From a virus (taxonomy: Duplodnaviria; Caudoviricetes), in the IMG/VR virus record IMGVR_UViG_2529293058_000001, positions 3,835 through 67,834 of that record: a stretch of 64,000 nucleotides of DNA. One strand, 5' to 3'. Positions 7,657 to 46,485 of this stretch are shown here, piece after piece. The notes below the pieces were generated by a model. The model worked only from the letters and a program-made list of their open reading frames with translations, did not search any database and had not been told where the DNA came from. Each line of letters begins with the position of its first letter. Position 1 is the first letter of the stretch. A program made the translations under genes and the position numbers.

Positions 7657-8616
7657 ATGACTTACATTGAACTTATAAATAATTTTTGGGAATTGGATGA
7701 AGACTGGCAATTTACCTGCTGTGAAACGAGGCTTTATTTTTATTTGTTGAAAACAGCGAATCGTTTAGGCTGGGTGGATAGCTGGACGCGTAGCGATGCA
7801 AAGGTGTCGTCTGACGTGGGAGTGTCAGTCAATTCGATGAAAACAGCCCGTAATAGATTAGTTCAAGCAGGTCTGATAGAATTTAAATCGGGAGGAAATG
7901 GACAGCGGGATAAAACGAGGTATATCGTTAGGTGTCAAAATTTGATACCTAAACTACAACCTAAACATGAACCTAACCTTATACCTAATCATGAACCTAA
8001 ACCGCAACCATATATTAATAAGACTAAGATAAAGACTAAGAATATTAATATCCCCCCCACACCCCCCAAGGGGGTTGACAAAGCAAAAGAAAAAGAGCTT
8101 TTGGAAAAGGAGGAGGCCTTGCGTGTTTTGGAAGAAGAGTTGAAGAAACGGGAGGCGGAACTGGGTGCACAATCGGACAATCCACCATCCAAACCGAAAA
8201 AGCGTCCTAATCCGTTGAACTCAGAAGCAAGGAAACTTTTCGAGGAACGCTATCAGGTTCTTTTCTCATCCAGCTATTACTGGAGTGCGAAAGATGCTGG
8301 AAATATGTCTTCTTTGCTCAAGAAGTTGAAATTTCAACGGGAGAAGAAGAATTTGCCTATTGACGACCAAGGCGTGTTGAATGCTTTGAAGTACTTATTG
8401 GATTCAATCACTGATGGATGGATATTGGAAAACTTCAGTGTGACGAATATTAATTCGAAGTTTAATGAAATTGTCTCACAGATAATGGCAAAGAAACAAG
8501 AACATGGAAATACTAAACATACAGACGGAGCGAAAGCCCGTGAACAACAAACCGATAGAGAAATCATGGAATATGCCCGTAGTGCCTTCAGAAAAGACGT
8601 ATTCGGTGATTCGTAG
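7657..8616 (+). CDS. Phage replication initiator (lambda O-like)
   Basis: N-terminal wHTH (MTYIELINNFW...LYFYLL) and a low-complexity linker containing iterons. Confidence 0.7.
   Translation: MTYIELINNFWELDEDWQFTCCETRLYFYLLKTANRLGWVDSWTRSDAKVSSDVGVSVNSMKTARNRLVQAGLIEFKSGGNGQRDKTRYIVRCQNLIPKLQPKHEPNLIPNHEPKPQPYINKTKIKTKNINIPPTPPKGVDKAKEKELLEKEEALRVLEEELKKREAELGAQSDNPPSKPKKRPNPLNSEARKLFEERYQVLFSSSYYWSAKDAGNMSSLLKKLKFQREKKNLPIDDQGVLNALKYLLDSITDGWILENFSVTNINSKFNEIVSQIMAKKQEHGNTKHTDGAKAREQQTDREIMEYARSAFRKDVFGDS
7947..8000 (+). repeat. Iteron-like repeats, probable phage ori
   Basis: ACCTAA recurs at 7947, 7959, 7971, 7983 and 7995 (12-nt period) inside the initiator gene. Confidence 0.65.
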
Positions 8617-19623: not shown

Positions 19624-19682
19624 AAACGTGATCATTTAAAGTGATTGCGCTTTTTCGTTTTATATTTTAGCATAAAACAATT

Positions 19683-31204: not shown

Positions 31205-34200
31205 ATGGGAATTAGAAATAGGGAGGGAGCGCTATATGTTGCGACAGGATTTGATAACTCTGGCTTTTACGAGGGGAAACGCGAGGCTATGGGAATTATC
31301 AAGACTCTGGCAAGTGAGATTACCTCTTTTGACGTATTCGGTGGCATTGGTATTAGTGCGGCAACTGCTTTTGCACAGGCAGCAAAAAGCTCATACGACT
31401 TTGAAAAAGAGTTCCGGAAGAACATGCTGGAAGTGGCGACCATTTCCACGCAGGTGACGGATGATATGACCGGTTTTATGAATCAGGTTATGTCTATAAC
31501 CCAAGAGATACCGATCAAGGCTCCGGAGGCCGCTAAAGCACTTTATAGTATCGTTTCTGCCGGTCATGATGGGGCGGCTGGTATGAAAATTCTAGAAGTT
31601 TCGGCTAAAGCAGCCGTGGGAGGGCTTACAGAAACCGAGACGGCAGCCGATGCTGTTACAACGATCCTGAATGCTTATAAGATGTCAGCAGAGGAGGCCG
31701 GTACAGTCTCGGATCAGCTTTTTACAACTGTCCGATTGGGTAAGACTACATTTGGCGAATTAGGAGCCTCCATAGCCCAGGTTGCACCTATTGCGGCCGC
31801 ATACGGGATCAGTATTGATCAGGTGTTGGGTGCAGTCGCTTCATTGACCAAACAAGGAACGCCGACATCGCAGGCAATGACCCAAATCCGGGCTGCTATC
31901 CAGGGTACTGCTGGGGAACTTGGGGATGCCGCTTTTCAAGGGCGTACTTTCCAGGAAGCATTGCAGTTGATTAATGAGAAGGCTGGCGGTTCTGCTTCTA
32001 AGATGAAGGAAATGCTCGGTACGGATGAAGGATTGGCTGCAACATTGGCTTTGACCGGAAAGAATGCTAAGTCGGCAGCGAGTGATCTCGGAGAGTTACA
32101 GAACTCTTTAGGAGCTACGGAAGCCGCGTTTGAGAAGATGAAAGATGCTGCAGACAATCAGCTTACATTGTTGGCTAATAATGTACAGGCCTATTTGCGT
32201 CCTTTGGGAGAGAAGATTCTGAAAGAAGTCTCCGATATTGCCAAGGCTTTTAATGAAGCATTTGAGAATAACGATATAGAAGGTACAATATCAAACCTTG
32301 AATCGTTGGTAAAGAATGCAGCTGGAGCTTTTCTTTCATATAAAACAGCTATTCTATTAGTTCAGGTAGCTCAACATTCGTATATAAAATCATCTGCTCT
32401 AAGCCGATTAGCGACAATTCAACATACGACAGCTACAGCATTACTTACCGGTGCTTTAAGAAAACAGGCTGTTGCTATGTTGGCAGCAGGAAAGGCAGCT
32501 CTTACAAACCCATATGTATTAGCAGTGGCAGGTGTTACCGCATTGGGATATGCAATATTCAAACTTGCGACACAGGCTACAGCTTCGGAAAAGGCGTTGG
32601 CTGCTCATAATAAGAGAGTCGCAGAAATGAGAGAATGGTCTGATGGAATGAGAAGCCAGACGGAAGAAATGTTGGGTGTGTTGCAAGATGAAAATAAGTC
32701 CACTTTGCAAAAGGTTGAAGCTTATAAAAAGTTACAAGAGCTTTATCCGAATGAATTGAAGAATCTTTCTCTACAGAAATTCCTTTTAATGGATATGGTT
32801 GAAGTCAACAAGATGTTGTCCAAGTCGATAGATGATCGTACTATGGCACAACAACGTGCCACTGTGAATTCCATTGAAGAAGAGATGGCTAAAAATAGTA
32901 AACGGATTTCTCAATTAGATAAAAAAAGTTGGATTGACACTAGCTTCCCGGAAGCACTTGAATTACGTCGGTTGCGAAAACGGAATGAGCAGCTAAAGAT
33001 AGAACATGAGAAAGCAGTAGAGATCGTTGTACAAGGATTAAAAGATCGTACAAAAGCAGAGGCTTTGGTAAATAGCCAATCAGAACAAGAAGAGACGAAG
33101 TTTGCAAAACCTGTAGATCAGAAAGAACTTGAGAAACAGAAAAAACTTCAAAAGGAACTCTTATCCCTTCGTTGTCAAAACCAGCAATCCGAAATTGACC
33201 TGATGAAAGAAGGTTCCGACAAGAAGATCGCCCAGTTGAATCTTGATTATGACAGAGAGTTGGATACTATCCGTGCAAGAGAAAAAGAATGGAGAGAGGC
33301 ACAAGGCGGAAAGTTGACTAAAGAGCAGACGATTGAGATCCGAATGGCAAAAGTCAATGCTGGGGCCAAATTAGGAAATGCGACATCTGATGTTATCCAT
33401 GAGCAGATTGAAGCAGAAGAACGCGCCATGAACGAATACTTGAAAGAATATGGTTCATATTTGGAAAAGCGTCAGGCTATCACGGAGCTTTATAATGAGA
33501 AGATAGCAAAGGCCACAACGGAAGGTGAACGGCTTTCCCTTGCAGAAGGTATGAAGAAAGAGCTGGCGGACGTGGATAATGAAGCCCAAAAGAGCACCTC
33601 CATCATCACCCGGTTGTTTGATGATATGAGTAAAAAGAATATCACCTCTATTCGTGCCATTGCGGATGAAGCGGAAAAATTCTTGTCTTTTCTTGAAAGA
33701 GGGGAATATTCCTCTGATAATTCATTCGGTATTACCAAAGAACAGTTTGATGTGCTTCGCAAGTCACCGGATCAGTTGAAGGCCATCAAGGATGAAATAG
33801 CCAATGTTCGCCGTGAAGCTGACCAAATGGAAACCTCTTTTAATAAAGTTTCAAATGGCTTGAAAAAAGTCTTTACCTCTGAAAGTGATGCCAAGAAGTT
33901 AAAAGAAGGTTTGGCAGAAATAGAAGAGGGCATGAGTGAAATTATGCAGACCGGACAGTTCCTCTCTGATACGTTTTCGAAGCTCGGAGATTCGTTTGGT
34001 GGTGTATTCGGTGGGATAGCTGAAGGTTTCAGTGTGGCTATGGACACTGTAAGTTCTGCAATGAACGGTGCGAAAGCCGGTTCCATGTTCGGTCCGATCG
34101 GTGCGTCTGCCGGTGCTGCCATTGGCGTTGTTACATCTTTGGCCGGTGCCATCGCCAAAATCCATGACAAGAAGAACGAAAAACGTATTCAGCGGTTGCA

Positions 34201-35140
34201 GGATCAGATCGACACATTGGATAAATCATACGAAAAATTGGATAAATCCATTCAGAAGGCTTATTCGAATGATGCTTCCCGATTGATCGATCAGCAGAAC
34301 AAACTGTTGGAACAACAGAAAGTTTTAATCCAACAACAAATCCGTGAAGAACAGGATAAAAAGAATACCGATAAGGATAGGATAAAAGAATGGCAAAGCC
34401 AAATTGACGAGATAAACGAAGCCATAGCGGACAACAAGGAGAAGGCCAAAGATGCCATCTTCGGGGAAGACCTGAAATCCGCCATTGACAACTTCGCTAA
34501 CGCACAAGCCGAAGCGTGGGCTTCCGGTGAAGACCGGGCAGAATCGGCAAAGGATACTGTCAAAAAGATGATGCGCCAGATGGTCACAGAATCCATCAAG
34601 GCAGCAACGGAATCTTCCGGTGCGATGGAGAAGATTCGTGACAAACTGAAGGAGTTCTATGCCGACAATGTCCTTTCCGGCTGGGAACAGGATTATATCT
34701 ATAACATGGCGGAAGAACTGCAAAAGGAGATTGACAGGCAGTTCGGTTGGGCTGATAGCCTAATGAAAGATAAGGTGGAAGAGCCGGAGAAAGAAGAAGA
34801 TATATCCGAAAATACCCTGAAAGGCGCATATGCCAAAGCTTCCCAGGAAAGCATCGACCTATTGGCCGGTCAGACCGGGGCCGTCCGTGTCCTGTTGGAA
34901 GACATCCGCGGCAGTATGCAACCGATCCGGGAACAAATGAGGCTGATCTATGATATGCAATCCAGAGGTTGGGAAGAAGTGAAGGCCATCCGCGAACTAT
35001 CAGATAAAGTGGAAAAGAATACCGATCGGATCGCCGAGAATACGAGAGAGATCAAAGAGGTTGCCGGTAAGATATCGGAGAACACCAGAGGCACGGTTGA
35101 TGCCTTGGAAGGTACTATTAACGTAAAAGTAAAAATGTAG
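31205..35140 (+). CDS. Tape measure protein (TP901-like core)
   Basis: 1311 aa, helical and Ala-rich; TTVRLGKTTFGEL motif. Confidence 0.93.
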   Translation: MGIRNREGALYVATGFDNSGFYEGKREAMGIIKTLASEITSFDVFGGIGISAATAFAQAAKSSYDFEKEFRKNMLEVATISTQVTDDMTGFMNQVMSITQEIPIKAPEAAKALYSIVSAGHDGAAGMKILEVSAKAAVGGLTETETAADAVTTILNAYKMSAEEAGTVSDQLFTTVRLGKTTFGELGASIAQVAPIAAAYGISIDQVLGAVASLTKQGTPTSQAMTQIRAAIQGTAGELGDAAFQGRTFQEALQLINEKAGGSASKMKEMLGTDEGLAATLALTGKNAKSAASDLGELQNSLGATEAAFEKMKDAADNQLTLLANNVQAYLRPLGEKILKEVSDIAKAFNEAFENNDIEGTISNLESLVKNAAGAFLSYKTAILLVQVAQHSYIKSSALSRLATIQHTTATALLTGALRKQAVAMLAAGKAALTNPYVLAVAGVTALGYAIFKLATQATASEKALAAHNKRVAEMREWSDGMRSQTEEMLGVLQDENKSTLQKVEAYKKLQELYPNELKNLSLQKFLLMDMVEVNKMLSKSIDDRTMAQQRATVNSIEEEMAKNSKRISQLDKKSWIDTSFPEALELRRLRKRNEQLKIEHEKAVEIVVQGLKDRTKAEALVNSQSEQEETKFAKPVDQKELEKQKKLQKELLSLRCQNQQSEIDLMKEGSDKKIAQLNLDYDRELDTIRAREKEWREAQGGKLTKEQTIEIRMAKVNAGAKLGNATSDVIHEQIEAEERAMNEYLKEYGSYLEKRQAITELYNEKIAKATTEGERLSLAEGMKKELADVDNEAQKSTSIITRLFDDMSKKNITSIRAIADEAEKFLSFLERGEYSSDNSFGITKEQFDVLRKSPDQLKAIKDEIANVRREADQMETSFNKVSNGLKKVFTSESDAKKLKEGLAEIEEGMSEIMQTGQFLSDTFSKLGDSFGGVFGGIAEGFSVAMDTVSSAMNGAKAGSMFGPIGASAGAAIGVVTSLAGAIAKIHDKKNEKRIQRLQDQIDTLDKSYEKLDKSIQKAYSNDASRLIDQQNKLLEQQKVLIQQQIREEQDKKNTDKDRIKEWQSQIDEINEAIADNKEKAKDAIFGEDLKSAIDNFANAQAEAWASGEDRAESAKDTVKKMMRQMVTESIKAATESSGAMEKIRDKLKEFYADNVLSGWEQDYIYNMAEELQKEIDRQFGWADSLMKDKVEEPEKEEDISENTLKGAYAKASQESIDLLAGQTGAVRVLLEDIRGSMQPIREQMRLIYDMQSRGWEEVKAIRELSDKVEKNTDRIAENTREIKEVAGKISENTRGTVDALEGTINVKVKM

Positions 35141-36442: not shown

Positions 36443-37978
36443 ATGGCAGAAGAATTTGAAATAATCAGGGCTAATTTGCTTCCGGCAGCCGGAACAATAA
36501 CCGATAATGATATGATCCTGATCATTCAGGGTGGGAGACCTAAGCGTGCTTTGCCCTCTGCAATGAAAGGTAAACAGGGCGATCCCGGCCTTAGTGCGTT
36601 TTTAGGGATAAACGATAAATACATCCTTTGGAAACAAGGAGCTAATGGTGCTTGGCAGAATCTGTTGGAAATTGAAAAAATTCGTGGGCCGAAAGGAGAG
36701 AAGCCGGTTTTTCGAAAGTTGAACGGTACGCTTCAAATGAAATACGAAGGTGAGCCGGATAGTGCATACGTGGATATTTTCGACCGTGAAGAATTGAAAA
36801 TGAAGTTTTCCGATCTGACACCAGCAGAAGTGGATCAATTGAAACTGCATTTTTCTGATCTGACAGAGACTGATAAGGCCGAACTTATGAAGCCGGCAAC
36901 GGATGCGGCAAAAGAGGTTCGTGAACAGATGTCCCAAATTAAGGAGGAAGCTAATACTGCTATATCGAATGTAAACACCGCAAAAGTGAGCGCAGAGGCG
37001 GCAACCAAGGCTGCAAATGATGCCGCAGCTTTAGCAAATGCCGCAGCTGGTCAAGCAACTCAATCTGCCGGAGATGCTGATGCAGCGACCAAATTGGCTG
37101 TTGCTGCCACTGCATTGGCGGAGGAAAAAGCCGGTATAGCCAATACCGCAGCCGAGAATGCCGATACCGCAGCAGCTTCAGCCAATATGGCAAAGGAAGA
37201 AGCAGATAAAGCAACTGTTGAAGCCAATATAGCCGCAGGAAAGGCCAATGATACCGCAGGAAAGGCTGACACGGCAACATTAAATGCCAATACCGCAACG
37301 GATAAAGCGAATGAAGCAGCATCCTCGGCTACAACTGCCGCCGAAAATGCTAATGCGGTTGTAGAGCGTGCGGATGATACCATAGCTTCTGCCGAGACTG
37401 CTACAAAATCGGCGACGGATGCAGCTTTGGCCGCAAACACGGCAAAAGAAAATGCAGACAAGGCGGCAAATACAGCCAATGTTGCCGCTACTCAGGCCAA
37501 TGAAAAGGCAGGACTGGCGGATACGGCTGCTTTGGCTGCTAATACAGCAAAGGAAGATGCCATAGTCGCAACCGGCGAGGCCAACACAGCCGCCGACCGC
37601 GCCAATCGTGCAGCCGAAGCCGCCGAAGGAGTCATCAGTGGACTACAACCCGACTGGAACGTTACCGATCCTGTCAATAAGAACTACATCAAGAACAAAC
37701 CGGAGATCCCGACGTTGGAGGCTATCCCGGACGAAAATACATTGAGCTATGTCAATACCGACGGTACAACCATCAATTTTCGTATCGGTGATGATGTGCG
37801 TGTAGCGGAAGATGGCGAATATGTATTCTACCGGCTTTATGATCTTGCCGGGGGAAAAGCCTCGTGGCAGGAATCCGGCAGCGGTACAGCCTTGCCTGGT
37901 AATGTTTATCTGACAGGAGCCAATTATTACAATGAATCAGTACGAACCATCAAACAAGGATATTTAAGCAATGAGTAA
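36443..37978 (+). CDS. Tail fibre-like protein with Ala/Asn/Thr-rich coiled-coil repeats
   Basis: About 240 aa of AxxAAxxAN repeats, then QPDWNVTDP..YIKNKP. Confidence 0.75.
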   Translation: MAEEFEIIRANLLPAAGTITDNDMILIIQGGRPKRALPSAMKGKQGDPGLSAFLGINDKYILWKQGANGAWQNLLEIEKIRGPKGEKPVFRKLNGTLQMKYEGEPDSAYVDIFDREELKMKFSDLTPAEVDQLKLHFSDLTETDKAELMKPATDAAKEVREQMSQIKEEANTAISNVNTAKVSAEAATKAANDAAALANAAAGQATQSAGDADAATKLAVAATALAEEKAGIANTAAENADTAAASANMAKEEADKATVEANIAAGKANDTAGKADTATLNANTATDKANEAASSATTAAENANAVVERADDTIASAETATKSATDAALAANTAKENADKAANTANVAATQANEKAGLADTAALAANTAKEDAIVATGEANTAADRANRAAEAAEGVISGLQPDWNVTDPVNKNYIKNKPEIPTLEAIPDENTLSYVNTDGTTINFRIGDDVRVAEDGEYVFYRLYDLAGGKASWQESGSGTALPGNVYLTGANYYNESVRTIKQGYLSNE

Positions 37979-38954
37979 GAAAGGAGCATTTATTTATCAA
38001 CAGATCGAACTGACGACGGCTGAATGGGCAATCAATACGACGGTCTATCCGGCATCGGTGTGGCTGTTCGAACGGTTGGATAATGGCAAGTTCAACATGA
38101 AGCTGGCTGATGGAGCGCATACGTTTGCAGATCTTCCAGCTGTTTTGCAGGACATGCAGGTCAGTGTCAAAACCAATAACGAAACGACATATATCCTCCA
38201 GATAACGACCGCAGCCGGAACATTCGACACACCGAACCTTAAAGGTGCAAAAGGTGATAAGGGAGACAAGGGCGAAACAGGCGCAAAGGGTGAAACCGGA
38301 GCCAAAGGAGAACAGGGTTTGCAGGGTGTCCCCGGTCCTCAAGGCGAACGGGGCGAACAAGGTCCCCAAGGAGAAACAGGCGCACAGGGTCCGAAGGGCG
38401 AACGAGGCGAACAAGGTCCGCAGGGCTTGCAGGGCGAGAAAGGCGAAACGGGTCCACAGGGCGAACAGGGTCTGCAGGGCATACAGGGCGTTCCCGGCAA
38501 GGATGGGGCAATCACTGTAGATGCTCCGTCCGACACATCTGCGTATGGCAGGAAAGCCGGTGGATGGGTGAAAGTCGTTGAAGCTGTAACGGGAAAAGGT
38601 CTGTCAACCAATGACTACAGCAACGAAGAGAAAACAAAGGTATCCGATTCCTTGCGGCTCAAAGAGTATGTCGATGTTAGTTCTTTGTCATCGCTTCCCT
38701 CTTCGCCCTACAACCTGCGTTTTGCCTATTCGAGTACATCTGTGCAGGCGATCAACTTTGCGAATATAGGAAGCGTTCCTGAGATGCAGGAGTTTTATCT
38801 GTCCATTAAGAACAACACCGGATCAACGATTAACCAACCGATCCCAAACGGTTCGGGCTGGCAATCGGAGGAAACAAGCGTTGAACTGCCAGCTGGTAAA
38901 GCCACAGGGGTATCGCTGAAAAAAGAACATGGGATAATTGTCGTGAGAGTATAA
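37971..38954 (+). CDS. Collagen-like tail fibre protein
   Basis: Long Gly-X-Y run (about 38240-38500). Confidence 0.85.
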
Positions 38955-38974
38955 TGAAAGGAGGTGAAAGATGA
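38954..38974 (+). other. 6-codon bridging mini-ORF MKGGER
   Basis: Start overlaps the upstream stop (TAATG), stop overlaps the downstream start (ATGA), and it contains AAAGGAGG. Confidence 0.55.
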
Positions 38975-39633
38975 AGAGACGGGTGATGACGGGAAAAGAT
39001 ACCGAATCCGATTTTTCCAATCAGTGGAATGCTAAGTATTACTTTCCATTGAACGGTGATTCGTATGAATGTGTCAATGGGGTATTAGGCGAGCTGAAAA
39101 ACAATGTACAATGGAAAGACGATAGCATTTTTACAGGAAATAAATCTGCGTATTTTATAAACGATTCTGGAATTAGGATACCGACAACGGGATATGTAAA
39201 GAAAAACGCATATAGTATTTCCCTGTGGGCTAAAAAGTATAACGAATCAGTAGACCGATACGGAGGAATTATAGTAAGCCGAATAAAAGACGGAGAAGGA
39301 TATGGACTTGAAATGAGGTATAAAAACATTCAAAATATTAATGATGGAATTAATATTACAACCAATAAATTCAATGTTTGGTGTCATTATGTGGTAACTT
39401 ACGATAATAACACGATGAGTGTTTACGAAAATGCTACACTTGTTAAGACAATAAATGATCCATTCTACGAAGGTTCTCACTTCTACATAGGTCTGGATGA
39501 TATATTTTTCACATCAGTAACCGAACGATCATATAATGGACTTATATGTGAAGTCTCCATATTTGAACGCATATTATCCAGAAGTGAGATAAATCAATTA
39601 TACAATGGCGGTAAAGGATTAAAATTAAATTGA
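38971..39633 (+). CDS. LamG/ConA-like lectin-domain protein (candidate adhesin)
   Basis: YFPLNG, SISLWAK, WCHYVVTY and GLICEVSIFERILS..EI..LY motifs. Confidence 0.85.
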   Translation: MKRRVMTGKDTESDFSNQWNAKYYFPLNGDSYECVNGVLGELKNNVQWKDDSIFTGNKSAYFINDSGIRIPTTGYVKKNAYSISLWAKKYNESVDRYGGIIVSRIKDGEGYGLEMRYKNIQNINDGINITTNKFNVWCHYVVTYDNNTMSVYENATLVKTINDPFYEGSHFYIGLDDIFFTSVTERSYNGLICEVSIFERILSRSEINQLYNGGKGLKLN

Positions 39634-40655
39634 TTATGCTATACATCCAAAAAGAAATCCAATTCTGGGAGACCGACGCTCCCCTTCCTGACTCCTACAA
39701 GGTAGGCACAATGGAAGAAGAATATAACGACGGCGCATATCTCTTGTTAGACGCCGAACAGGAACAGTTCCACACCGACCATCCGGAGGCAAGTTCGCTG
39801 GAATGTTGGCGGAAGGAACTCACTCCGGAACCCGAACCGGCACCGGAAGAAAAGCTCTGGCGTGCCCGTGATGCCAAACGGCAGGAAATCTACGACAAAG
39901 ACATCCATCATTATTATATTGATAAACAGGACGCATATGTCTCGAACACCCTGCAAGTGAAGGATAAGTGTGGCCGGCAGGAAGAAGTCGAAGTAGGCGG
40001 TCATCTGTACGCCTCGAATATCTTAACGGTTGCTCTTGACGAAATAGCGGACTATTCGGAGCAGTGCGCCAAGGTGACAGACGGCTTGCTATCCCGTATC
40101 GATGCCGCCCAAACAGCCGAGGAGGTCGAAGCTATCGTGGTGAAAGGCTATCCTGAAATGATCCATACAACAACGGCAGCCTTGCAAACTAAAGCAGATA
40201 AGGCAATCGCTAAATCCCCGGAAGCGCAGGCAGTGACCTTTGCCCGTGCGATGATGAACAGCGTGTCTCTCACAGCCAGCCAAGCGTTGGAGATGCAGGT
40301 CTTATTCCCCATTTGGGGTGAGAAAGATGCGGAGTTTGGCAAGGAAGTTGAAATAGGCTTCCGGCTTCGAGTAGTGGAAGGAGAAAGCGACACTTTGTTT
40401 GAAGTGATACAAAAGCACAAGCTGCAAGCCGATTGGAAACCGGGCATAGAAACTGCTTCACTGTATAAGATCGTTGAAGCTGAGCACGCAGGCACGCTTG
40501 ATGATCCTATTCCATACGTGCAGGGTATGGCATTCGAGAAAGACAAATATTATGAACAATACGGTGTGATCTATCTCTGCATTCTGACAACCGTTACAGG
40601 TTATCCGAACGACTTGAAAGACTTGCCCACAATTGTACAGGAGGTAAAGCAATGA
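39630..40655 (+). CDS. Tail-associated protein with C-terminal carbohydrate-binding-like module
   Basis: FEVIQKHK..ADWKPG...SLY and PIPYVQGMAFEKDKYY, CBM-like. Confidence 0.6.
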   Translation: MIMLYIQKEIQFWETDAPLPDSYKVGTMEEEYNDGAYLLLDAEQEQFHTDHPEASSLECWRKELTPEPEPAPEEKLWRARDAKRQEIYDKDIHHYYIDKQDAYVSNTLQVKDKCGRQEEVEVGGHLYASNILTVALDEIADYSEQCAKVTDGLLSRIDAAQTAEEVEAIVVKGYPEMIHTTTAALQTKADKAIAKSPEAQAVTFARAMMNSVSLTASQALEMQVLFPIWGEKDAEFGKEVEIGFRLRVVEGESDTLFEVIQKHKLQADWKPGIETASLYKIVEAEHAGTLDDPIPYVQGMAFEKDKYYEQYGVIYLCILTTVTGYPNDLKDLPTIVQEVKQ

Positions 40656-40752
40656 AACAGGTTATGTTATTAAAAGTTAAACGGGGGGGGGTAAATACTC
40701 TCTAAATAAAGAAGTTACGACCTTTTATCGTAAGAAAGGAGGGCGTAGATGA
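40652..40752 (+). promoter_or_regulatory. Poly-G leader ORF 1 (G9, out of frame here)
   Basis: With G9 (40683-91) it stops at 40703-05. With G10 or G7 it reads to TGA 40750-52, overlapping ATG 40749. Confidence 0.7.
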
Positions 40753-41495
40753 GACGGTCGATGATGGGACGGAAGAAGTTGCAGTTGTTCACCAAGAGGT
40801 TCTATCCTGCCGGGAATTATACCTGGATCGTACCTAAAGGATGTAGGGAGGTTGATGTGTTTCTTGTTGGAGCCGGTGGAGGATGTTCACATAATTCAGG
40901 ATTAGGAGTTCCTGGAGGCGGTGGAGGTGGCTATACTAAAACATATAAGAAGGATACCGCTGGATATAGAGATGGCAACGCGATAACTGTTACACCAGGA
41001 CAAACTATTGAAATTATAGTTGGTGCAGGAGTTCGTGGCGCAAATGGGGGATATTCACAGTTTATGAGTTCGCTTTACCGGGCTGAAGGAGGCCATCTGT
41101 CTCAATGGAATGGAGACGGAAATGGTGGTTCGGGAGGTGTAGGGGTAGGTAGATCTACTCATTCGGTCGGAGGCTCAGATGGTACAGGCAGTGGTGGAAC
41201 ATCGGGGCAAGGACATACGACGCGTGATTTTGGGGAATCTAATGGTAAAAGGAATGCAGCAGGTGGGGCAAGCTCCTATAATAAATCAGGCGGGGAGACG
41301 TCTCAGCCGGGAACATCAGATTATACAGAAGGGAGTGGCGAAGGCAGTAATGAAAGTAGTTCTTTGGCTTCTGGCTGGAGTGCCGGACTTGGTGGTGGCG
41401 GCTACGGTGGTGGAGCTGGGGGAAATGCATCGGGAAAATCGACGAAAGGTGGCGATGGCACTGTCCTGATCCGCTATTGGGCTTACGAAGAATGA
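40749..41495 (+). CDS. Glycine-rich-domain tail adhesin-like protein
   Basis: YTWIVPKG...VFLVGAGGG...GGGGGY and GGDGTVLIRY motifs. Confidence 0.75.
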   Translation: MRRSMMGRKKLQLFTKRFYPAGNYTWIVPKGCREVDVFLVGAGGGCSHNSGLGVPGGGGGGYTKTYKKDTAGYRDGNAITVTPGQTIEIIVGAGVRGANGGYSQFMSSLYRAEGGHLSQWNGDGNGGSGGVGVGRSTHSVGGSDGTGSGGTSGQGHTTRDFGESNGKRNAAGGASSYNKSGGETSQPGTSDYTEGSGEGSNESSSLASGWSAGLGGGGYGGGAGGNASGKSTKGGDGTVLIRYWAYEE

Positions 41496-41553
41496 TCTGC
41501 CGTTGAAAAAGATGAAACAGGATATTAACGACTAAAAAATAGGAGATAAAGTC

Positions 41554-41652
41554 ATGAGAAATAATTGTTTACAAATGTTAATGGGGGGGGGGGGTAAACA
41601 CCTCTTAACTCAAGTATCTGACCGACTTTCGGTGGAAAGGAGGTTGGTATGA
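41554..41652 (+). promoter_or_regulatory. Poly-G leader ORF 2 (G12, in frame here)
   Basis: MRNNCLQMLMGGGGKHLLTQVSDRLSVERRLV; its TGA 41650-52 overlaps ATG 41649. Confidence 0.7.
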
Positions 41653-42284
41653 TAAGATCGATGATGGGACGGAAGAAAGTAGACAAGAATACTTTGCTGT
41701 TGCTACATTTTGATGGATCATTGAAAGATGAAGTCTCAGGCAAGCCTTATGTTGGTAGTAATATGTCCTATGTAGTGGGAAAATTCAAGAATTGCGTTTC
41801 GTTTTCAGGAAACGGGTATGTAAAGATAAGTGGAACGAATGCCATAAACGAGTCCCTATATCCAAACTATACCGTCGATTTTTGGATTAAACTGAAAAGT
41901 GGTGTGAAAAACGGTATAATGTCAAAAGGCGTTGCTTATGGAAGTTACAGCTTTGATATAATGGAGGAATCTGACGGACGCATTTTCTTTGGATTGCAGT
42001 ATGGTGGAACCCGAGGGGATGCAATATGCTATTTTACGATGCCACGGGATCAGTGGGTTCATCTTGCGATCGTCAGGTCACAATCTCGATATTGGAAAGT
42101 GTATGTAAATGGAGTGTATGCGTCTGGTTTCACATCAACGATGGTTTCAGGGTACTATAGTTCTTTAATGATCGGAAAATATCGAGATTATGGATTGTAT
42201 CTGAACGGTATGATTGACGAGTTTCGCATCAGTAATATTGCCCGTTGGACATCAAACTTCACTCCGCCTGCAAGGCCGTATTAA
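41649..42284 (+). CDS. LamG-like lectin-domain protein (candidate adhesin)
   Basis: TLLLLHFDG, YTVDFWIK, WVHLAIVR and LNGMIDEFRISNIARWTSNFTPP motifs. Confidence 0.85.
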   Translation: MIRSMMGRKKVDKNTLLLLHFDGSLKDEVSGKPYVGSNMSYVVGKFKNCVSFSGNGYVKISGTNAINESLYPNYTVDFWIKLKSGVKNGIMSKGVAYGSYSFDIMEESDGRIFFGLQYGGTRGDAICYFTMPRDQWVHLAIVRSQSRYWKVYVNGVYASGFTSTMVSGYYSSLMIGKYRDYGLYLNGMIDEFRISNIARWTSNFTPPARPY

Positions 42285-42524
42285 TAAATTAGTGACACTG
42301 TCTTTGGGCTGTCACAGCAGAAAGACAGCAAATGTATATTCAGAAAAAATTATTGATAATCGCCAACCCCAGGTTGGGTATTTTCTTTTAAAACAAATGG
42401 AGATATAAAATGTTCGGTGGCGAAAGAATAATAAAACAGCCTCCAGGCTATCACAGATTGGAGGCTGTAAAAAAAGAAAATTAGGGGACCGAGGGTCTCC
42501 GGAAACAAAGTTAAACAATAAAGT

Positions 42525-43049
42525 TTGAAAATCATGTTATTATTAATTATTTCTTTTTTGGTTATCGCAGTTTATACGGCAGCAGTTTGTATAAAGGCAA
42601 AAGGTGTACCGTACTCAATTAGTGCGACGTATTATACTCTTGATCATAAATTGATCTTTGGAGCAAGCATGGCACTGACGGCTATGTTCCTATTCCCGGT
42701 CATTTGGGAAATGAGTACAACCTTTACTATGCGGTTGCTGGCGATCGCAGCCTGTATCGGTTTGATTGGTGTCGGTTTGGCTCCTGATTTCAAAGACACT
42801 TGGATAAACCGCATTCATTGTGGATCGGCGGCATTGACGTTGCTTTCTTCTCAGCTATGGGTTGGCTGCACGTCTTTCTGGTGGGTTCTTATTCCGGTGT
42901 GGCTGGCTTTTATCGTTTACACGGTAATAGGCATGAGTAAACGGTTGAGTGGTAATATATGGCAGGACTTTGTATCAACGAAGCCGATGTTCTGGTGTGA
43001 GATTGCAGCGTTGTCTACGACTTTTGGCGCGTGTGGACTTGCGCTTTAG
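42525..43049 (+). CDS. Multi-pass membrane protein
   Basis: About five hydrophobic helices; GVPYSISATYY motif. Confidence 0.75.
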   Translation: MKIMLLLIISFLVIAVYTAAVCIKAKGVPYSISATYYTLDHKLIFGASMALTAMFLFPVIWEMSTTFTMRLLAIAACIGLIGVGLAPDFKDTWINRIHCGSAALTLLSSQLWVGCTSFWWVLIPVWLAFIVYTVIGMSKRLSGNIWQDFVSTKPMFWCEIAALSTTFGACGLAL

Positions 43050-43166
43050 AAATCTACCATAAACAGAACATCTACCTTATATATTAAAACACGACAACCG
43101 GTAAAATGTCATATATCCGGTTGCCGTGTTTTTTATTGCCTAAAAATAAGTAGGTTATTTAGCAGT

Positions 43167-46127
43167 ATGGAAATAAAGCGCGGAAATACGGTAGTTTGTG
43201 ATGTTTATTTGAAGGATAACAGTTATACGGTCGAAGAGATCATGGGTGAGGACACTCTTACCCTGAATTTTCTTTCCCGCAATGTGGTAAACCTTCAGAT
43301 CAACGACTATATAGACTTTGAAGGGACAAAATACAAGGTCCGGCATAACGAGAAGGTGACGAAAAGGGAGACATCTCTTGGTTGGGAATATACCGTTCAG
43401 TTCTATTCAAGTCGGTATGATCTTTTGGATGCAGAGTTTTTCCTTCATGGTACACCGGAGCGGAAAAAGAACTTCGACTATTACACCGGTACCGCCCGTG
43501 ACTGGCTAACCCTATTTGTCAAAAACATGAACCGTACAGGATCTGGTTGGGTGGCCGGATCCTGTATCGAATCCCGGATGATTACCCTTTCTTTCAAAGA
43601 TAAGAAAGTCGGGACGGTACTTGACGAACTCATTAAAGAATTGGATACGGAATACTGGATATCCGGCCAGACAATAAATATCGGCAGGAGGGAGTATTCA
43701 AGCAACGGCCTTGTCTTGGCACAGGGCGAAGGAATGGGTTTTACCGAACTGGAAGTGTCTGCTGTTGATGATACGCCACCTGTGACGGTTTTTTATCCAT
43801 ACGGTTCAGATAAGAATCTCGGTCCCGATTATGGTGCTGATTATCTTCTTCTGCCTGATGGCCGGTTCTCTATCGAAAAGAATGTAGAGAAGTACGGCCG
43901 GATAGAAAAGTCCATGCAATTCGACCATATCTTTCCGAAAGGAGAGTTTGCCGTAACAGAAAAGATCGACGATTACACTCTGAGAGCTGCCGGTATGGAT
44001 TTCAATCTTACCGATTGCCTGTTGGACGGGGTGGAAGTGATCGTTACATTCCAGGATGGCGGCTTGGCTGGCTATGACCTTGCAATCGTTGAAGACAGTT
44101 GGGACAATGACTTGAAACAGTTCAAACTAAAGCAGAATGACCAGGAAAACGCCTTGAAAGTTCCCGGTGACATTAATTTTTCTGTCGGTGACAAGTTTAT
44201 CCTTACCGGCCTGAAAATGCCGCAAAGCTATAGGGATAACGCTTCATTACAGCTACAGGAAGAGGCGCAAGCATGGTTGGATGGCAAGTGTGAGAAACGC
44301 ATCCAGTTACGAGGAAAATGTGATGAAATTGTTTTTCGTTTGCAAAACATCTTTATCGCCTGTGGCCAGATGGTTGGCGTATATTCTGAACAGTTGGATA
44401 TCGATCGAGAGATTCGTGTTACCAAAATAAAAAGGTATATCGAGAAAGACGGTACACCTTCATACCGGTATGAACTTACCTTGTCCGATTTCCTTGAATC
44501 GAATGGTTTTAAGGATCTGGTGGATGATGTGAATAAAGTGCCGGAAGAGATTGAGGATGCGGTTAAGCCGGTTCGGGAACATACGAAACGTTCATGGCGG
44601 GACGTGATGGAAACTTTGGGCATGATGTTTGACCCGGAAGGAGATTATTTCACTGAACTTATCAAGCCGTTGGCCGTGCATACGGCTCAACTTATCGTCG
44701 GCACCAATTCCCAGCAGATGGAGCTTATAGGGATGAAGTTTATTCCGAATGCGGACAATGATGCCAACTATTTCAAGAATACGACAGGAAAGTTAGTACA
44801 CTTTACCGTTAGCGAGGAAATCCGTGAATGGGCTATTCCGGCGGCTTCTTTCCGGCTGAATAATTCGCTTGCCTATTATGTTTATGCCAAATGTCCAAAA
44901 GAAGGAACAAATGGCTCAATATATGTCAGTGAACGGCAGATAAAGTTAGAGGATGAAACAGGGTTCTATCATTTCTGGGTAGGGGTGCTCAATACTCCGG
45001 AGGATGGCGTACGCTCTTGGCTTCCGAATTATGGATACACTGAGATTGCCGGCCAGACGATCACGACAGGATTGATAAAGGACAAGTTAGCCCGATTGGT
45101 GATTGATCTGGTGAATGGGACTATAACCGGACCTGTGATATTCAAATCCGGAACATCCGGTTATAATAACATTTCCGACCGTCCTAACCTTCAACCGTTG
45201 TATGATGGGGTAAATGATGCCCTGACGGATGCAGAGAATGCGTCAAATGTAGCCAACAACGCCCAATTGACTGCAAATAATAAGGCAAGGGTATTTTATC
45301 AAACGACGGCTCCAACATCGGGTATGCGGACAAATGACTTATGGGTGGATGGGGAGAATATCTATAGATATAGCGGTTCTAAATGGGTTCTTGCCTCAAA
45401 GTATGACAATACAATAACAGAGATCAATGGCGGACTCATAACTACGGGTGCGATCGCTTTTGGAAGCACAGGTGGAATGTCGGCGTCTGGTACAATCCGT
45501 ATTTGGTCGGGAGGAACAGCCGGGGTGAAAGGGCAACCACCCACTGATCCGACATTTAGCGTTGATAGCTCAGGTAACGTGATTTCAAATGGGACTATTA
45601 CAGCAAATGATGCCATTTTATTAAGAAATGGACAAGCTGGGATTACAGGATATGGCACATCTAATAGTTCTATAAGATTTTGGGCTGGAGGTTTAGTTCC
45701 AGAAAGTGCAGATTTTAGAGTTGACCAAAGTGGAGATGTTAATGTTAGAATGTTAAATGCTATAAGTCTCAATGGAGGCACATCTAATTTTTCAAGCATT
45801 TATTTAACCGACAAATCGTGGAATAATAACTATGTTAATCTGTTTGCAGCAAGAGAAGCTCAAGGTATGGAAATTCAAAGAACTTATCAAGGTATTTTAG
45901 GTAATATCGGAAAATTTATTGTAATGAAATACAATCCTGATGCAACGGCTTATCGGGAAATAAGTTTTTTTGTCAGACATTTTAAATCTGATGCCTCATG
46001 GGTATTTAGGACTTGTGTAAAAGCAAGTTTCTTACCAACGTTAACCCAGATTAATGATTTAGATACATCTGGAACAAAATATAATGTAAAATGGGATAGT
46101 GCAACAGGTTTATTATATATAGAATAA
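43167..46127 (+). CDS. Minor tail / baseplate (Tal-like) protein with C-terminal receptor-binding region
   Basis: 986 aa; PYGSDKNL, YGRIEKS..FDHIFP and ARVFYQTTAP motifs. Confidence 0.8.
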   Translation: MEIKRGNTVVCDVYLKDNSYTVEEIMGEDTLTLNFLSRNVVNLQINDYIDFEGTKYKVRHNEKVTKRETSLGWEYTVQFYSSRYDLLDAEFFLHGTPERKKNFDYYTGTARDWLTLFVKNMNRTGSGWVAGSCIESRMITLSFKDKKVGTVLDELIKELDTEYWISGQTINIGRREYSSNGLVLAQGEGMGFTELEVSAVDDTPPVTVFYPYGSDKNLGPDYGADYLLLPDGRFSIEKNVEKYGRIEKSMQFDHIFPKGEFAVTEKIDDYTLRAAGMDFNLTDCLLDGVEVIVTFQDGGLAGYDLAIVEDSWDNDLKQFKLKQNDQENALKVPGDINFSVGDKFILTGLKMPQSYRDNASLQLQEEAQAWLDGKCEKRIQLRGKCDEIVFRLQNIFIACGQMVGVYSEQLDIDREIRVTKIKRYIEKDGTPSYRYELTLSDFLESNGFKDLVDDVNKVPEEIEDAVKPVREHTKRSWRDVMETLGMMFDPEGDYFTELIKPLAVHTAQLIVGTNSQQMELIGMKFIPNADNDANYFKNTTGKLVHFTVSEEIREWAIPAASFRLNNSLAYYVYAKCPKEGTNGSIYVSERQIKLEDETGFYHFWVGVLNTPEDGVRSWLPNYGYTEIAGQTITTGLIKDKLARLVIDLVNGTITGPVIFKSGTSGYNNISDRPNLQPLYDGVNDALTDAENASNVANNAQLTANNKARVFYQTTAPTSGMRTNDLWVDGENIYRYSGSKWVLASKYDNTITEINGGLITTGAIAFGSTGGMSASGTIRIWSGGTAGVKGQPPTDPTFSVDSSGNVISNGTITANDAILLRNGQAGITGYGTSNSSIRFWAGGLVPESADFRVDQSGDVNVRMLNAISLNGGTSNFSSIYLTDKSWNNNYVNLFAAREAQGMEIQRTYQGILGNIGKFIVMKYNPDATAYREISFFVRHFKSDASWVFRTCVKASFLPTLTQINDLDTSGTKYNVKWDSATGLLYIE

Positions 46128-46131
46128 GAAG

Positions 46132-46485
46132 ATGAATTTAACATTGAAAGACAGAGTATTAATACTCAACACCGTGTTACCACAGTTTGACACGAGAAAA
46201 AACATGGAACTGAAAGTATCGATAGACAGTAAGATAGCGATCTCGGAGGTTGATCAGAAGCGTATCGTTATCAAGGATATGGGGAGTGGTCAAATCAATA
46301 TCGGATTTACTGATGCAGCGGCCATAACAGAAACAACAGATATAGCTTTGACTGATGAAGAACTTCAATATCTCAAACAACGTGTTGACTTCATAGACCG
46401 CAATGGGATGTTCTCCGAATTCACGATGCCGACGTATGTCAAAATTTTGGATGAACCGCTAAAAGAGGGGCAACAGGCCGAATAA
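46132..46485 (+). CDS. Tail fibre chaperone-like hypothetical protein
   Basis: Position after the tail-tip gene. Confidence 0.5.
   Translation: MNLTLKDRVLILNTVLPQFDTRKNMELKVSIDSKIAISEVDQKRIVIKDMGSGQINIGFTDAAAITETTDIALTDEELQYLKQRVDFIDRNGMFSEFTMPTYVKILDEPLKEGQQAE

Follow-up and report, generated by a model that had tools for sequence, protein, structure and literature searches.

The 64-kb window analysed here, that is, the whole stretch of DNA under study, is part of a 67.8-kb provirus record in IMG/VR, and relatives of its tail genes are carried by Parabacteroides genomes (P. hominis, P. acidifaciens and an uncultured Parabacteroides). At the end of its siphovirus tail operon lie two leader modules, each consisting of a short leader open reading frame (ORF) with a homopolymeric G run, placed directly ahead of a main gene: the glycine-rich (Gly-rich) gene in the case of leader 1 and the LamG-2 gene in the case of leader 2. 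Apart from these two runs (G9 and G12), neither the window nor the full record has a run of eight or more G residues; overlapping matches to G8 number seven, versus a mean of 1.04 in shuffled sequence. The components of both modules, including their Shine-Dalgarno (SD) sites, are as follows.

39630–40655, + strand: 341-aa tail-module ORF, matching PHROG families of unknown function; its TGA overlaps the leader-1 ATG (ATGA)
40639–40644, + strand: SD-like AGGAGG, 7 nt 5′ of the leader-1 ATG
40652–40705, + strand: leader ORF 1 in its present form, 17 codons, G9, out of phase
40683–40691, + strand: G9 run 1, with G6–G12 among relatives
40692–40709, + strand: frame-closing stops of run 1 (TAA at 40692–94; TAAATAA, which is TAA at 40703–05 plus TAA at 40707–09)
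40715–40748, + strand: predicted hairpin (UUACG.CCUUUU ... AGGAGG.CGUAG) enclosing the Gly-rich SD (AGGAGG, 40737–42); not above shuffled controls
40749–41495, + strand: Gly_rich_2 (PF21722) gene, 248 aa
41554–41652, + strand: leader ORF 2, 32 codons, G12, in phase, with its own SD-like TAGGAGAT upstream
41583–41594, + strand: G12 run 2
41595–41608, + strand: frame-closing stops of run 2 (TAA at 41595–97 and TAA at 41606–08)
41621–41648, + strand: predicted 10-bp hairpin ACCGACUUUC/GGAGGUUGGU holding the LamG-2 SD; z −2.2, with SD pairing marginally above shuffles
41649–42284, + strand: LamG-2, Laminin_G_3 gene, 211 aa

The two modules are paralogous over approximately 130 nt and follow a single order: SD, ATG, short ORF, G run, TAA, some 55 nt, AAAGGAGG and ATGA. 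In both leaders AAAGGAGG is found 7–8 nt 5′ of the main-gene ATG, and the Gly-rich and LamG-2 genes begin with an identical 20 nt, encoding M(R/I)RSMMGRKK. Leader 1 begins at ATG 40652, within the overlap with the TGA of the 341-aa ORF, and in its G9 frame ends at TAA 40703–05; a run of G10 or G7 would extend it to TGA 40750–52, overlapping ATG 40749, and G8 would end it at TAA 40692–94. Leader 2, beginning at ATG 41554, is open in its G12 frame as far as TGA 41650–52, which overlaps ATG 41649. The TAA immediately after run 1 and the TAAATAA that comes next between them shut the two non-ATGA frames; leader 2 carries TAA at +0 and +11, and in either leader the non-ATGA frames are closed no more than 15–16 nt 3′ of the run. 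The third frame remains open for 17–19 codons and ends on the ATGA overlap, the total leader length of 13–33 codons being set by the length of the G run. This full rule, in which the ATGA frame is open and the other two are closed, is satisfied by 2–5% of shuffles per post-run segment. The coordinates and frames of both leaders, re-derived from the letters of the window, agree throughout with those of a preliminary description of the locus, whose observation of the leaders is confirmed.

Fusion of a leader to its gene is impossible at any run length, and the third-frame TGA overlaps the main ATG out of the frame of the gene. A single fused protein or a programmed frameshift was therefore rejected as an explanation of the runs, since ribosomes in the frame of the gene would meet the TAA that adjoins the run, and those in a second frame would meet a stop within 16 nt.

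Relatives of the modules were collected from IMG/VR with a probe consisting of 20 nt of the common gene start, which revealed at least 79 loci holding at least 122 modules; the counts of variation and state given below are among the matches listed for this probe, all of them in assembled contigs. The longest uninterrupted run spans G6–11 in module 1 (n = 63) and G5–12 in module 2 (n = 47). Run 2 is mostly G8–G12, with G5 as the longest run in a few interrupted copies; runs shorter than eight mostly reflect a single A or T interruption. The flanks are near-identical across the listed modules while the run varies, and run length is uncoupled from flank divergence. For instance, among pairs whose 400-nt flanks are identical, the run length was unequal in 121 of 164 for module 1 (74%) and in 31 of 39 for module 2 (79%), and contigs were seen in which the run (G11 versus G9; G8 versus G11) is the sole difference across 1.34 kb. 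The hypervariable tract length predicted in the preliminary description is thus found in assemblies at both modules, where copies with identical flanks differ. Hypermutability is evident between lineages, and within one lineage the changes presumably arise through slippage.

The leader reaches ATGA in 28 of 63 copies of module 1 and in 15 of 46 copies of module 2. When this is read as the ON state, the pairs (module 1/module 2) comprise 13 off/off, 13 ON/off, 8 off/ON and 4 ON/ON, so that the four on/off combinations foreseen from the window are all present; the state frequencies are near the thirds expected from an unconstrained switch. In most relatives of leader 1 the run is followed by four As, versus three in the window; the rule is kept, with G9 as the in-phase length. 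In intact modules the stop directly after the run changes only to TGA or TAG, and its only loss, to CAA, accompanies decay of the run to G6. Contigs L006, L011, L013, L030, L076 and L089 begin or end exactly at the run, L089 being an isolate-genome contig. These contig breaks fit heterogeneous reads, and they also fit poly-G read trimming.

A recombinant copy of the locus was seen in L065 (IMG/VR 3300045988_140026), in which the sequence up to GGTTATTAAAAGTTAAAC has been exchanged for unrelated DNA; the usual leader-1 start is gone, and the G8 run and everything 3′ of it are kept. On the minus strand of a Tannerellaceae genome (L090:572–637), the second module has TAAC after the run rather than TAAAC. 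This closes all three frames, so ATGA is unreachable at any run length, and the copy represents an allele locked off or else reflects an error of sequencing.

To what extent the frame rule is found beyond close relatives was addressed with a pattern comprising G7+, T[AG][AG]A, AGGAG and ATGA, applied to 183 Tannerellaceae genomes and 401 sampled Bacteroidales genomes. It was matched in 6 of the 183 Tannerellaceae genomes, versus none with a reversed control pattern, and in 1 of the 401 Bacteroidales genomes (L097). Three of the seven matches (L090, L091 and L092) are diverged or identical tail modules. The sequence after the run in L092 is largely different and the cargo gene, of 200 aa, is another one; TAA at +0, TAA at +11 and the open ATGA frame are kept. 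All in all, the frame rule is kept in leader-1 variants with three or four As, in leader 2, and in L091, L092 and L093. The last of these, on a Tannerellaceae contig (L093:528–1726), is a 42-codon leader with G7 whose stop overlaps the start of a gene for a GT1/GT4 glycosyltransferase (ATGA). Its likeness to leader 1 is seen both at the SD (GAAGAAAGGAGGGCG) and in the surroundings of the run (GTAAAC-Gn-TAAAATG). The switch cassette may serve surface-glycan genes too.

The other three matches (L094, L095 and L097) do not obey the frame rule and are probably unrelated to the leader modules. In L094 (positions 1493–2128; Tannerellaceae), a G15 run follows the leader-2-like AATGTTAATT, 57 nt 5′ of the gene for an extracytoplasmic function (ECF) sigma factor; an SD and ATGA are present at this gene, but only 15 nt are open in the ATGA frame, so the rule fails, and the site may be a host contingency locus of another mode. 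A looser pattern for more diverged MxRAMMGKKK modules found one locus only in IMG/VR, of the L091 type.

A leader of different sequence was reached through distant Gly-rich homologues. In Zeta crAss-like phages an AT-rich leader, without homology to the prophage leaders and without an SD, precedes a Gly_rich_2 gene; it is present in L109, L110, L118, L119, L121, L122 and L130, which are contigs of 90–150 kb, and in the published phage csAssE-Sib (OR575929; L178:2390–2452). Its run, G7–G11, is located 16 nt 5′ of the Gly-rich ATG. Read from the leader's own ATG, G9 leads to TAA at once, G8 leads to TAG three codons on, and G10 leads to the ATGA overlap. In a second version of these 16 nt, which shows many differences, the same wrong frame is closed by TGA in place of TAG. 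Sister contigs (L114–L117, L123, L125 and L126) are without the run and have a TATATTTG box 8 nt 5′ of the ATG. The crAss-like leader is independent of the prophage classes; the latter are homologous and are therefore not counted as independent. In all classes the leader stop overlaps the downstream start (ATGA) when the leader is in phase, and the check suggested in the preliminary description, namely that in-frame should equal ATGA overlap at other loci, thus has a positive outcome in diverged as well as non-homologous leaders.

A further homopolymer is seen approximately 20 nt into the crAss-like Gly-rich gene (at about 1490–1500), where L121 and L130 show A8 versus A7, which puts the frame onto an early TAG; the alternatives are a second homopolymer switch, in this case within the gene, and an assembly error. 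In the P. hominis relatives L085 and L086 the Gly-rich gene is joined directly to the upstream gene, without a G-run leader. These two contigs of P. hominis NSJ-79 have the last 130 nt upstream and the N-terminus MKRSLMGSREKK in common, and their Gly-rich bodies are 94% and 51% identical to the window protein; they are either two prophages or alternative cassettes that split the assembly. P. acidifaciens carries a leader-2-type module ahead of a Gly-rich gene with 40% identity.

The Gly-rich protein matches Pfam family PF21722 (Gly_rich_2) with 61.9 bits versus a cut-off of 24.3, and has hundreds of homologues of approximately 240–270 aa with a basic N-terminus. Searching the Protein Data Bank with its sequence gave no match; a fold search did. 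The AlphaFold model (36 sequences; pLDDT 91.8, pTM 0.90) resembles a tail-tip chain of mycobacteriophage Bxb1 (9d93_Qb; Z 13.7 over 171 residues, root-mean-square deviation 3.8, 34% identity), the fiber of cyanophage Pam3 (7ypx_A; 7ypx/7yfw; Z 13.5) and the glycine-rich domains of ALK/LTK (Z 6–7). The likeness to the Pam3 fiber and the Bxb1 chain is one of fold over 171–173 residues; identity to Pam3, Bxb1 and ALK is only 22–34%, and the N-terminal anchor of the Gly-rich protein is here about 10 residues. The model makes a tail-tip fibre fold well supported for this product. The preliminary description had spoken of tail adhesins: the tail-tip part of that designation agrees with the predicted fold (Z 13.5–13.7), and it is this same fold that suggests a putative adhesin activity. 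LamG-2 matches Pfam PF13385 (Laminin_G_3), which has a concanavalin-like lectin fold, with 70.2 bits versus a cut-off of 27.6, and also matches PHROG families of virion and baseplate proteins.

The genes behind the leaders are exchanged among relatives. The Gly-rich gene is an allelic cassette with variants of 245–270 aa. Leader 1 precedes five Gly-rich alleles, the ends of which are conserved and the middles variable, or stands directly before the LamG gene (at least seven loci), and behind leader 2 stands LamG or an unrelated gene of 201 aa; the leader modules sit at the cassette borders. The cargo proteins of 201, 136 and 200 aa, among them those of L091 and L092, belong to no Pfam family.

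Strong SD sites of the AAGGAGG type are found at seven phage gene starts only (11900, 38971, 40652, 40749, 41554, 41649 and 46605); the other 28 or so have A/T-rich upstream regions without a strong SD. Genes without an SD are usual in Bacteroidota, members of which reportedly seldom initiate afresh at SD sites. Five of the seven strong sites are located at ATGA overlaps with an upstream ORF, which suggests that SD sites serve here for restart rather than for fresh initiation.

Predicted hairpins of −11 to −15 kcal/mol cover the downstream SD in each prophage class, with outer stems that differ by class. Against shuffled upstream sequence, the SD–AUG pairing of L092 is clear (reached by 5 of 300 shuffles) and that of leader 2 is marginal (36–55 of 300). 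Masking of the SD by a hairpin was dropped as support, and the hairpins are not counted as evidence, because the shuffled-upstream control mostly erased significance, removing it for leader 1 and L091. A reading of the G runs as promoter spacers was likewise rejected: on the + strand the host-type −7 box (TAnnTTTG) is absent from 38127 to 46343, which places the runs inside the operon, and sigma-70-like promoter matches around them are at background level. An Rfam scan gave no family, the single sub-threshold match to a long non-coding RNA being a chance one.

We consider it reasonably likely that each module is a leader-frame reinitiation switch, by which slippage would turn the translation of an intact tail-tip gene on or off. 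The tail operon of this temperate Parabacteroides siphovirus would then possess two independent contingency switches, in each of which slipped-strand gain or loss of G would shift the reading of a short and dispensable leader ORF into another frame. Ribosomes in two of the frames would stop at once or within 4–6 codons, 42–58 nt before the next gene; in the third they would reach a UGA that overlaps the AUG of the intact tail-tip gene, where they would restart, or open the start region, and the gene would be translated. By this rule the state of the window would be Gly-rich OFF and LamG ON. For the virus, the pair probably amounts to a heritable random on/off switch for its tail-tip content. 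In the interpretation given in the preliminary description the sequence-level predictions (run variability, the frame rule and all four states) are borne out; that downstream translation depends on leader translation, and in which direction, we infer, as we do the incorporation of the products into virions and an effect on host range.

Several considerations weigh against a reinitiation switch. The Gly-rich and LamG-2 genes own a strong AAAGGAGG at ideal spacing and could start unaided, and the SD–AUG pairing of leader 1 and L091 is not above that of the shuffled-upstream controls. Slippage of RNA polymerase on G9–12 could blur the frames in the RNA, and homopolymer assembly error or poly-G trimming could inflate both the length spread and the contig breaks. 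In the crAss-like leader the wrong-frame stops are only 9–16 nt from the AUG, and restart from them might blunt the switch; the first three prophage leader classes are homologous and hence not independent.

An effect of the hypermutable run on RNA synthesis or stability, rather than on reinitiation, is unlikely in our estimation. Here an early stop would bare the RNA to Rho, an attenuator or a nuclease, or a C/U-rich small RNA would pair with the G repeat. There are established cases of both kinds: a leader-peptide repeat switch acting via attenuation at pil1 (PMC3894217) and length-dependent small-RNA targeting of an mRNA-leader G repeat at tlpB (PMC8295292). A hairpin is moreover predicted between the run and the gene in every prophage class, and polarity fits the frame rule equally well as reinitiation. 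However, a terminator scan of 40652–41652 found no terminator; the hairpins are followed by AUGAGA or AUGAUA and not by a U run, so they are neither intrinsic terminators nor the equivalent of the pil1 terminator. A small RNA of the required kind has no obvious source in the phage part of the window, where on both strands no C run of six or more is found besides the complements of the two G runs, although the host might encode one. The exact ATGA is, finally, kept in every class, the 16-nt crAss-like leader included, and this overlap is something that reinitiation needs and polarity does not.

It is distinctly improbable that the G runs, although hypermutable, have no regulatory role and represent scars, or else hot spots for recombination, at the edges of exchangeable tail-tip cassettes, with genes that use their own SD whatever the frame. 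The modules do lie exactly at cassette borders with varied genes behind leaders 1 and 2, the SD sites are strong and their sequestration is not significant, and on/off frequencies of close to one third are those expected without selection. Scars would not be expected, however, to keep the ATGA frame open and the others closed in six sequence classes, including a non-homologous leader without an SD, or to keep the post-run stop as TAA, TGA or TAG; in the absence of selection long runs decay fast, and here they have lasted in both phage lineages, and SD sites are said to be seldom used for fresh initiation in Bacteroidota. Very little probability attaches to the length differences being sequencing or assembly errors, with a true run that is fixed and a window G9 state that is erroneous. 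Long G runs are prone to errors in Illumina data, the ends of several contigs coincide with the runs, and the single A or T interruptions of some copies may be errors. The lengths extend from 8 to 12, rather than by one residue to either side, at both sites and in more than 100 assemblies from many samples, among them a published phage genome and records that, lacking the 33000... form of metagenome-sample identifiers in IMG/VR (e.g., 2854176150 and 2873663553), are presumably isolate genomes, and a similar spread is seen at the unrelated crAss-like leader of another phage lineage, which argues against such an origin.

Comparison with known systems places the reinitiation switch among several relatives. 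Campylobacter phages of the Fletchervirus group reportedly possess hypermutable polyG tracts inside the genes for receptor-binding proteins. Common to both is a phage-encoded G homopolymer in a host-recognition module, which would here likewise yield mixed virions without a recombinase or a diversity-generating retroelement (DGR). In the Campylobacter phages the tract is in the gene and the protein is shifted or truncated, whereas here it lies outside the coding sequence of the putatively switched protein, in a separate leader ORF whose frames close before the gene proper, and the protein is intact. The host phylum and the phage type also differ.

In Streptococcus gallolyticus, pil1 is governed by GCAGA repeats in a leader-peptide gene together with attenuation (Danne et al. 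2014, PMC3894217). As in the present modules, a simple repeat within a short upstream leader ORF sets the extent of leader-peptide translation, and hence the leader length, and the travel of the ribosome decides, in the present case presumably, on an intact downstream gene for a surface structure. The pil1 repeat is 5 nt long, acts through a ribosome-sensitive intrinsic terminator on transcription, and belongs to a bacterial pilus operon, whereas the present system has a homopolymer, no terminator after the hairpin and a precise ATGA overlap, and is found in a phage. The ATGA overlap together with the lack of a terminator points to termination-reinitiation rather than to the pil1 mode. In Helicobacter pylori, the small RNA RepG reads a G repeat within the leader of the tlpB mRNA (PMC8295292), and here the likeness consists of a variable G homopolymer in a 5′ mRNA leader that tunes, or in the present case would tune, expression post-transcriptionally. 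The tlpB repeat is untranslated, is read by a trans-acting C/U-rich RNA and has an effect graded by length, whereas the runs described here are within an ORF furnished with stops in a three-frame arrangement. No published description of poly-G leader ORFs in phages was found in the literature, and the paper that presents csAssE-Sib, on Zeta crAss-like phages (PMC12386605), is silent on the run in this genome.

The overlap design as such is the same throughout this tail operon. Translational coupling by stop/start overlap (ATGA, TAATG) is textbook knowledge for phage and bacterial operons, and termination-reinitiation has reportedly been described. Ordinary coupling is constitutive, whereas here a hypermutable run would decide whether ribosomes arrive in the coupling frame. 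A run-free example is provided by a relay ORF farther upstream; the remaining features of the operon are listed together with it.

31205–35140: tape measure gene, first in order in the tail operon, with several tail ORFs next
37971–38954: collagen-repeat (collagen-like) fibre gene
38954–38974, + strand: relay ORF of six codons (MKGGER), which links the collagen-like fibre gene to LamG-1
38971–39633: LamG-1 gene
42363–42387, + strand: terminator-like hairpin with a T run, the probable end of the tail operon

The relay ORF forms a TAATG overlap with the stop of the collagen-like fibre gene and an ATGA overlap with the LamG-1 start at 38971. It contains AAAGGAGG, and its 3′ design is that of the leaders, without a G run.

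Between the terminator-like hairpin of the tail operon and a second hairpin with a T run (approximately 43090–43135), the latter ahead of a 986-aa Prophage_tail-like gene, lies an ORF (42525–43049) for a multi-pass membrane protein of 174 aa without a family match; it looks like an inserted moron. The motif TTTATATTTTA is repeated at 19659–69, 24888–98, 29795–805 and 31181–91, in each case 9–14 nt 5′ of a structural gene start, that of the tape measure gene included, and may be a late promoter. The only + strand C runs of six or more in the window are a C7 and a C6, 3 nt apart (8052–8067), inside ORF 7657–8616, which is upstream of the ORFs taken as phage genes (from 11900).

Capsules and surface glycans of gut Bacteroidales are constantly being turned on and off, and the answers recognized so far to how their phages keep pace are DGRs and host phase variation. 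If the reinitiation switch is real, it would let these phages hedge across types of host surface in a way that is cheap, heritable and reversible, with the tail-tip protein left intact and only its translation gated. It would also account for the breaking of assemblies of these very common phages at recurrent spots, and would bear on translation restart in a phylum that largely ignores SD sites. That a temperate siphovirus, Zeta crAss-like phages and the leader of a glycosyltransferase gene all show the design suggests a reusable regulatory part. We tentatively put forward the wider possibility that ATGA-ending poly-G leaders are a general, portable contingency switch at the level of translation in gut Bacteroidales phages and in some host surface genes, and that this switch has arisen at least twice, once as the SD-bearing prophage cassette and once as the SD-less Zeta crAss-like leader. 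It would turn intact tail-tip proteins on and off by termination-reinitiation, with SD-restart in the prophage version, and the virions of each burst would differ at random in their tail-tip sets without a recombinase or DGR.

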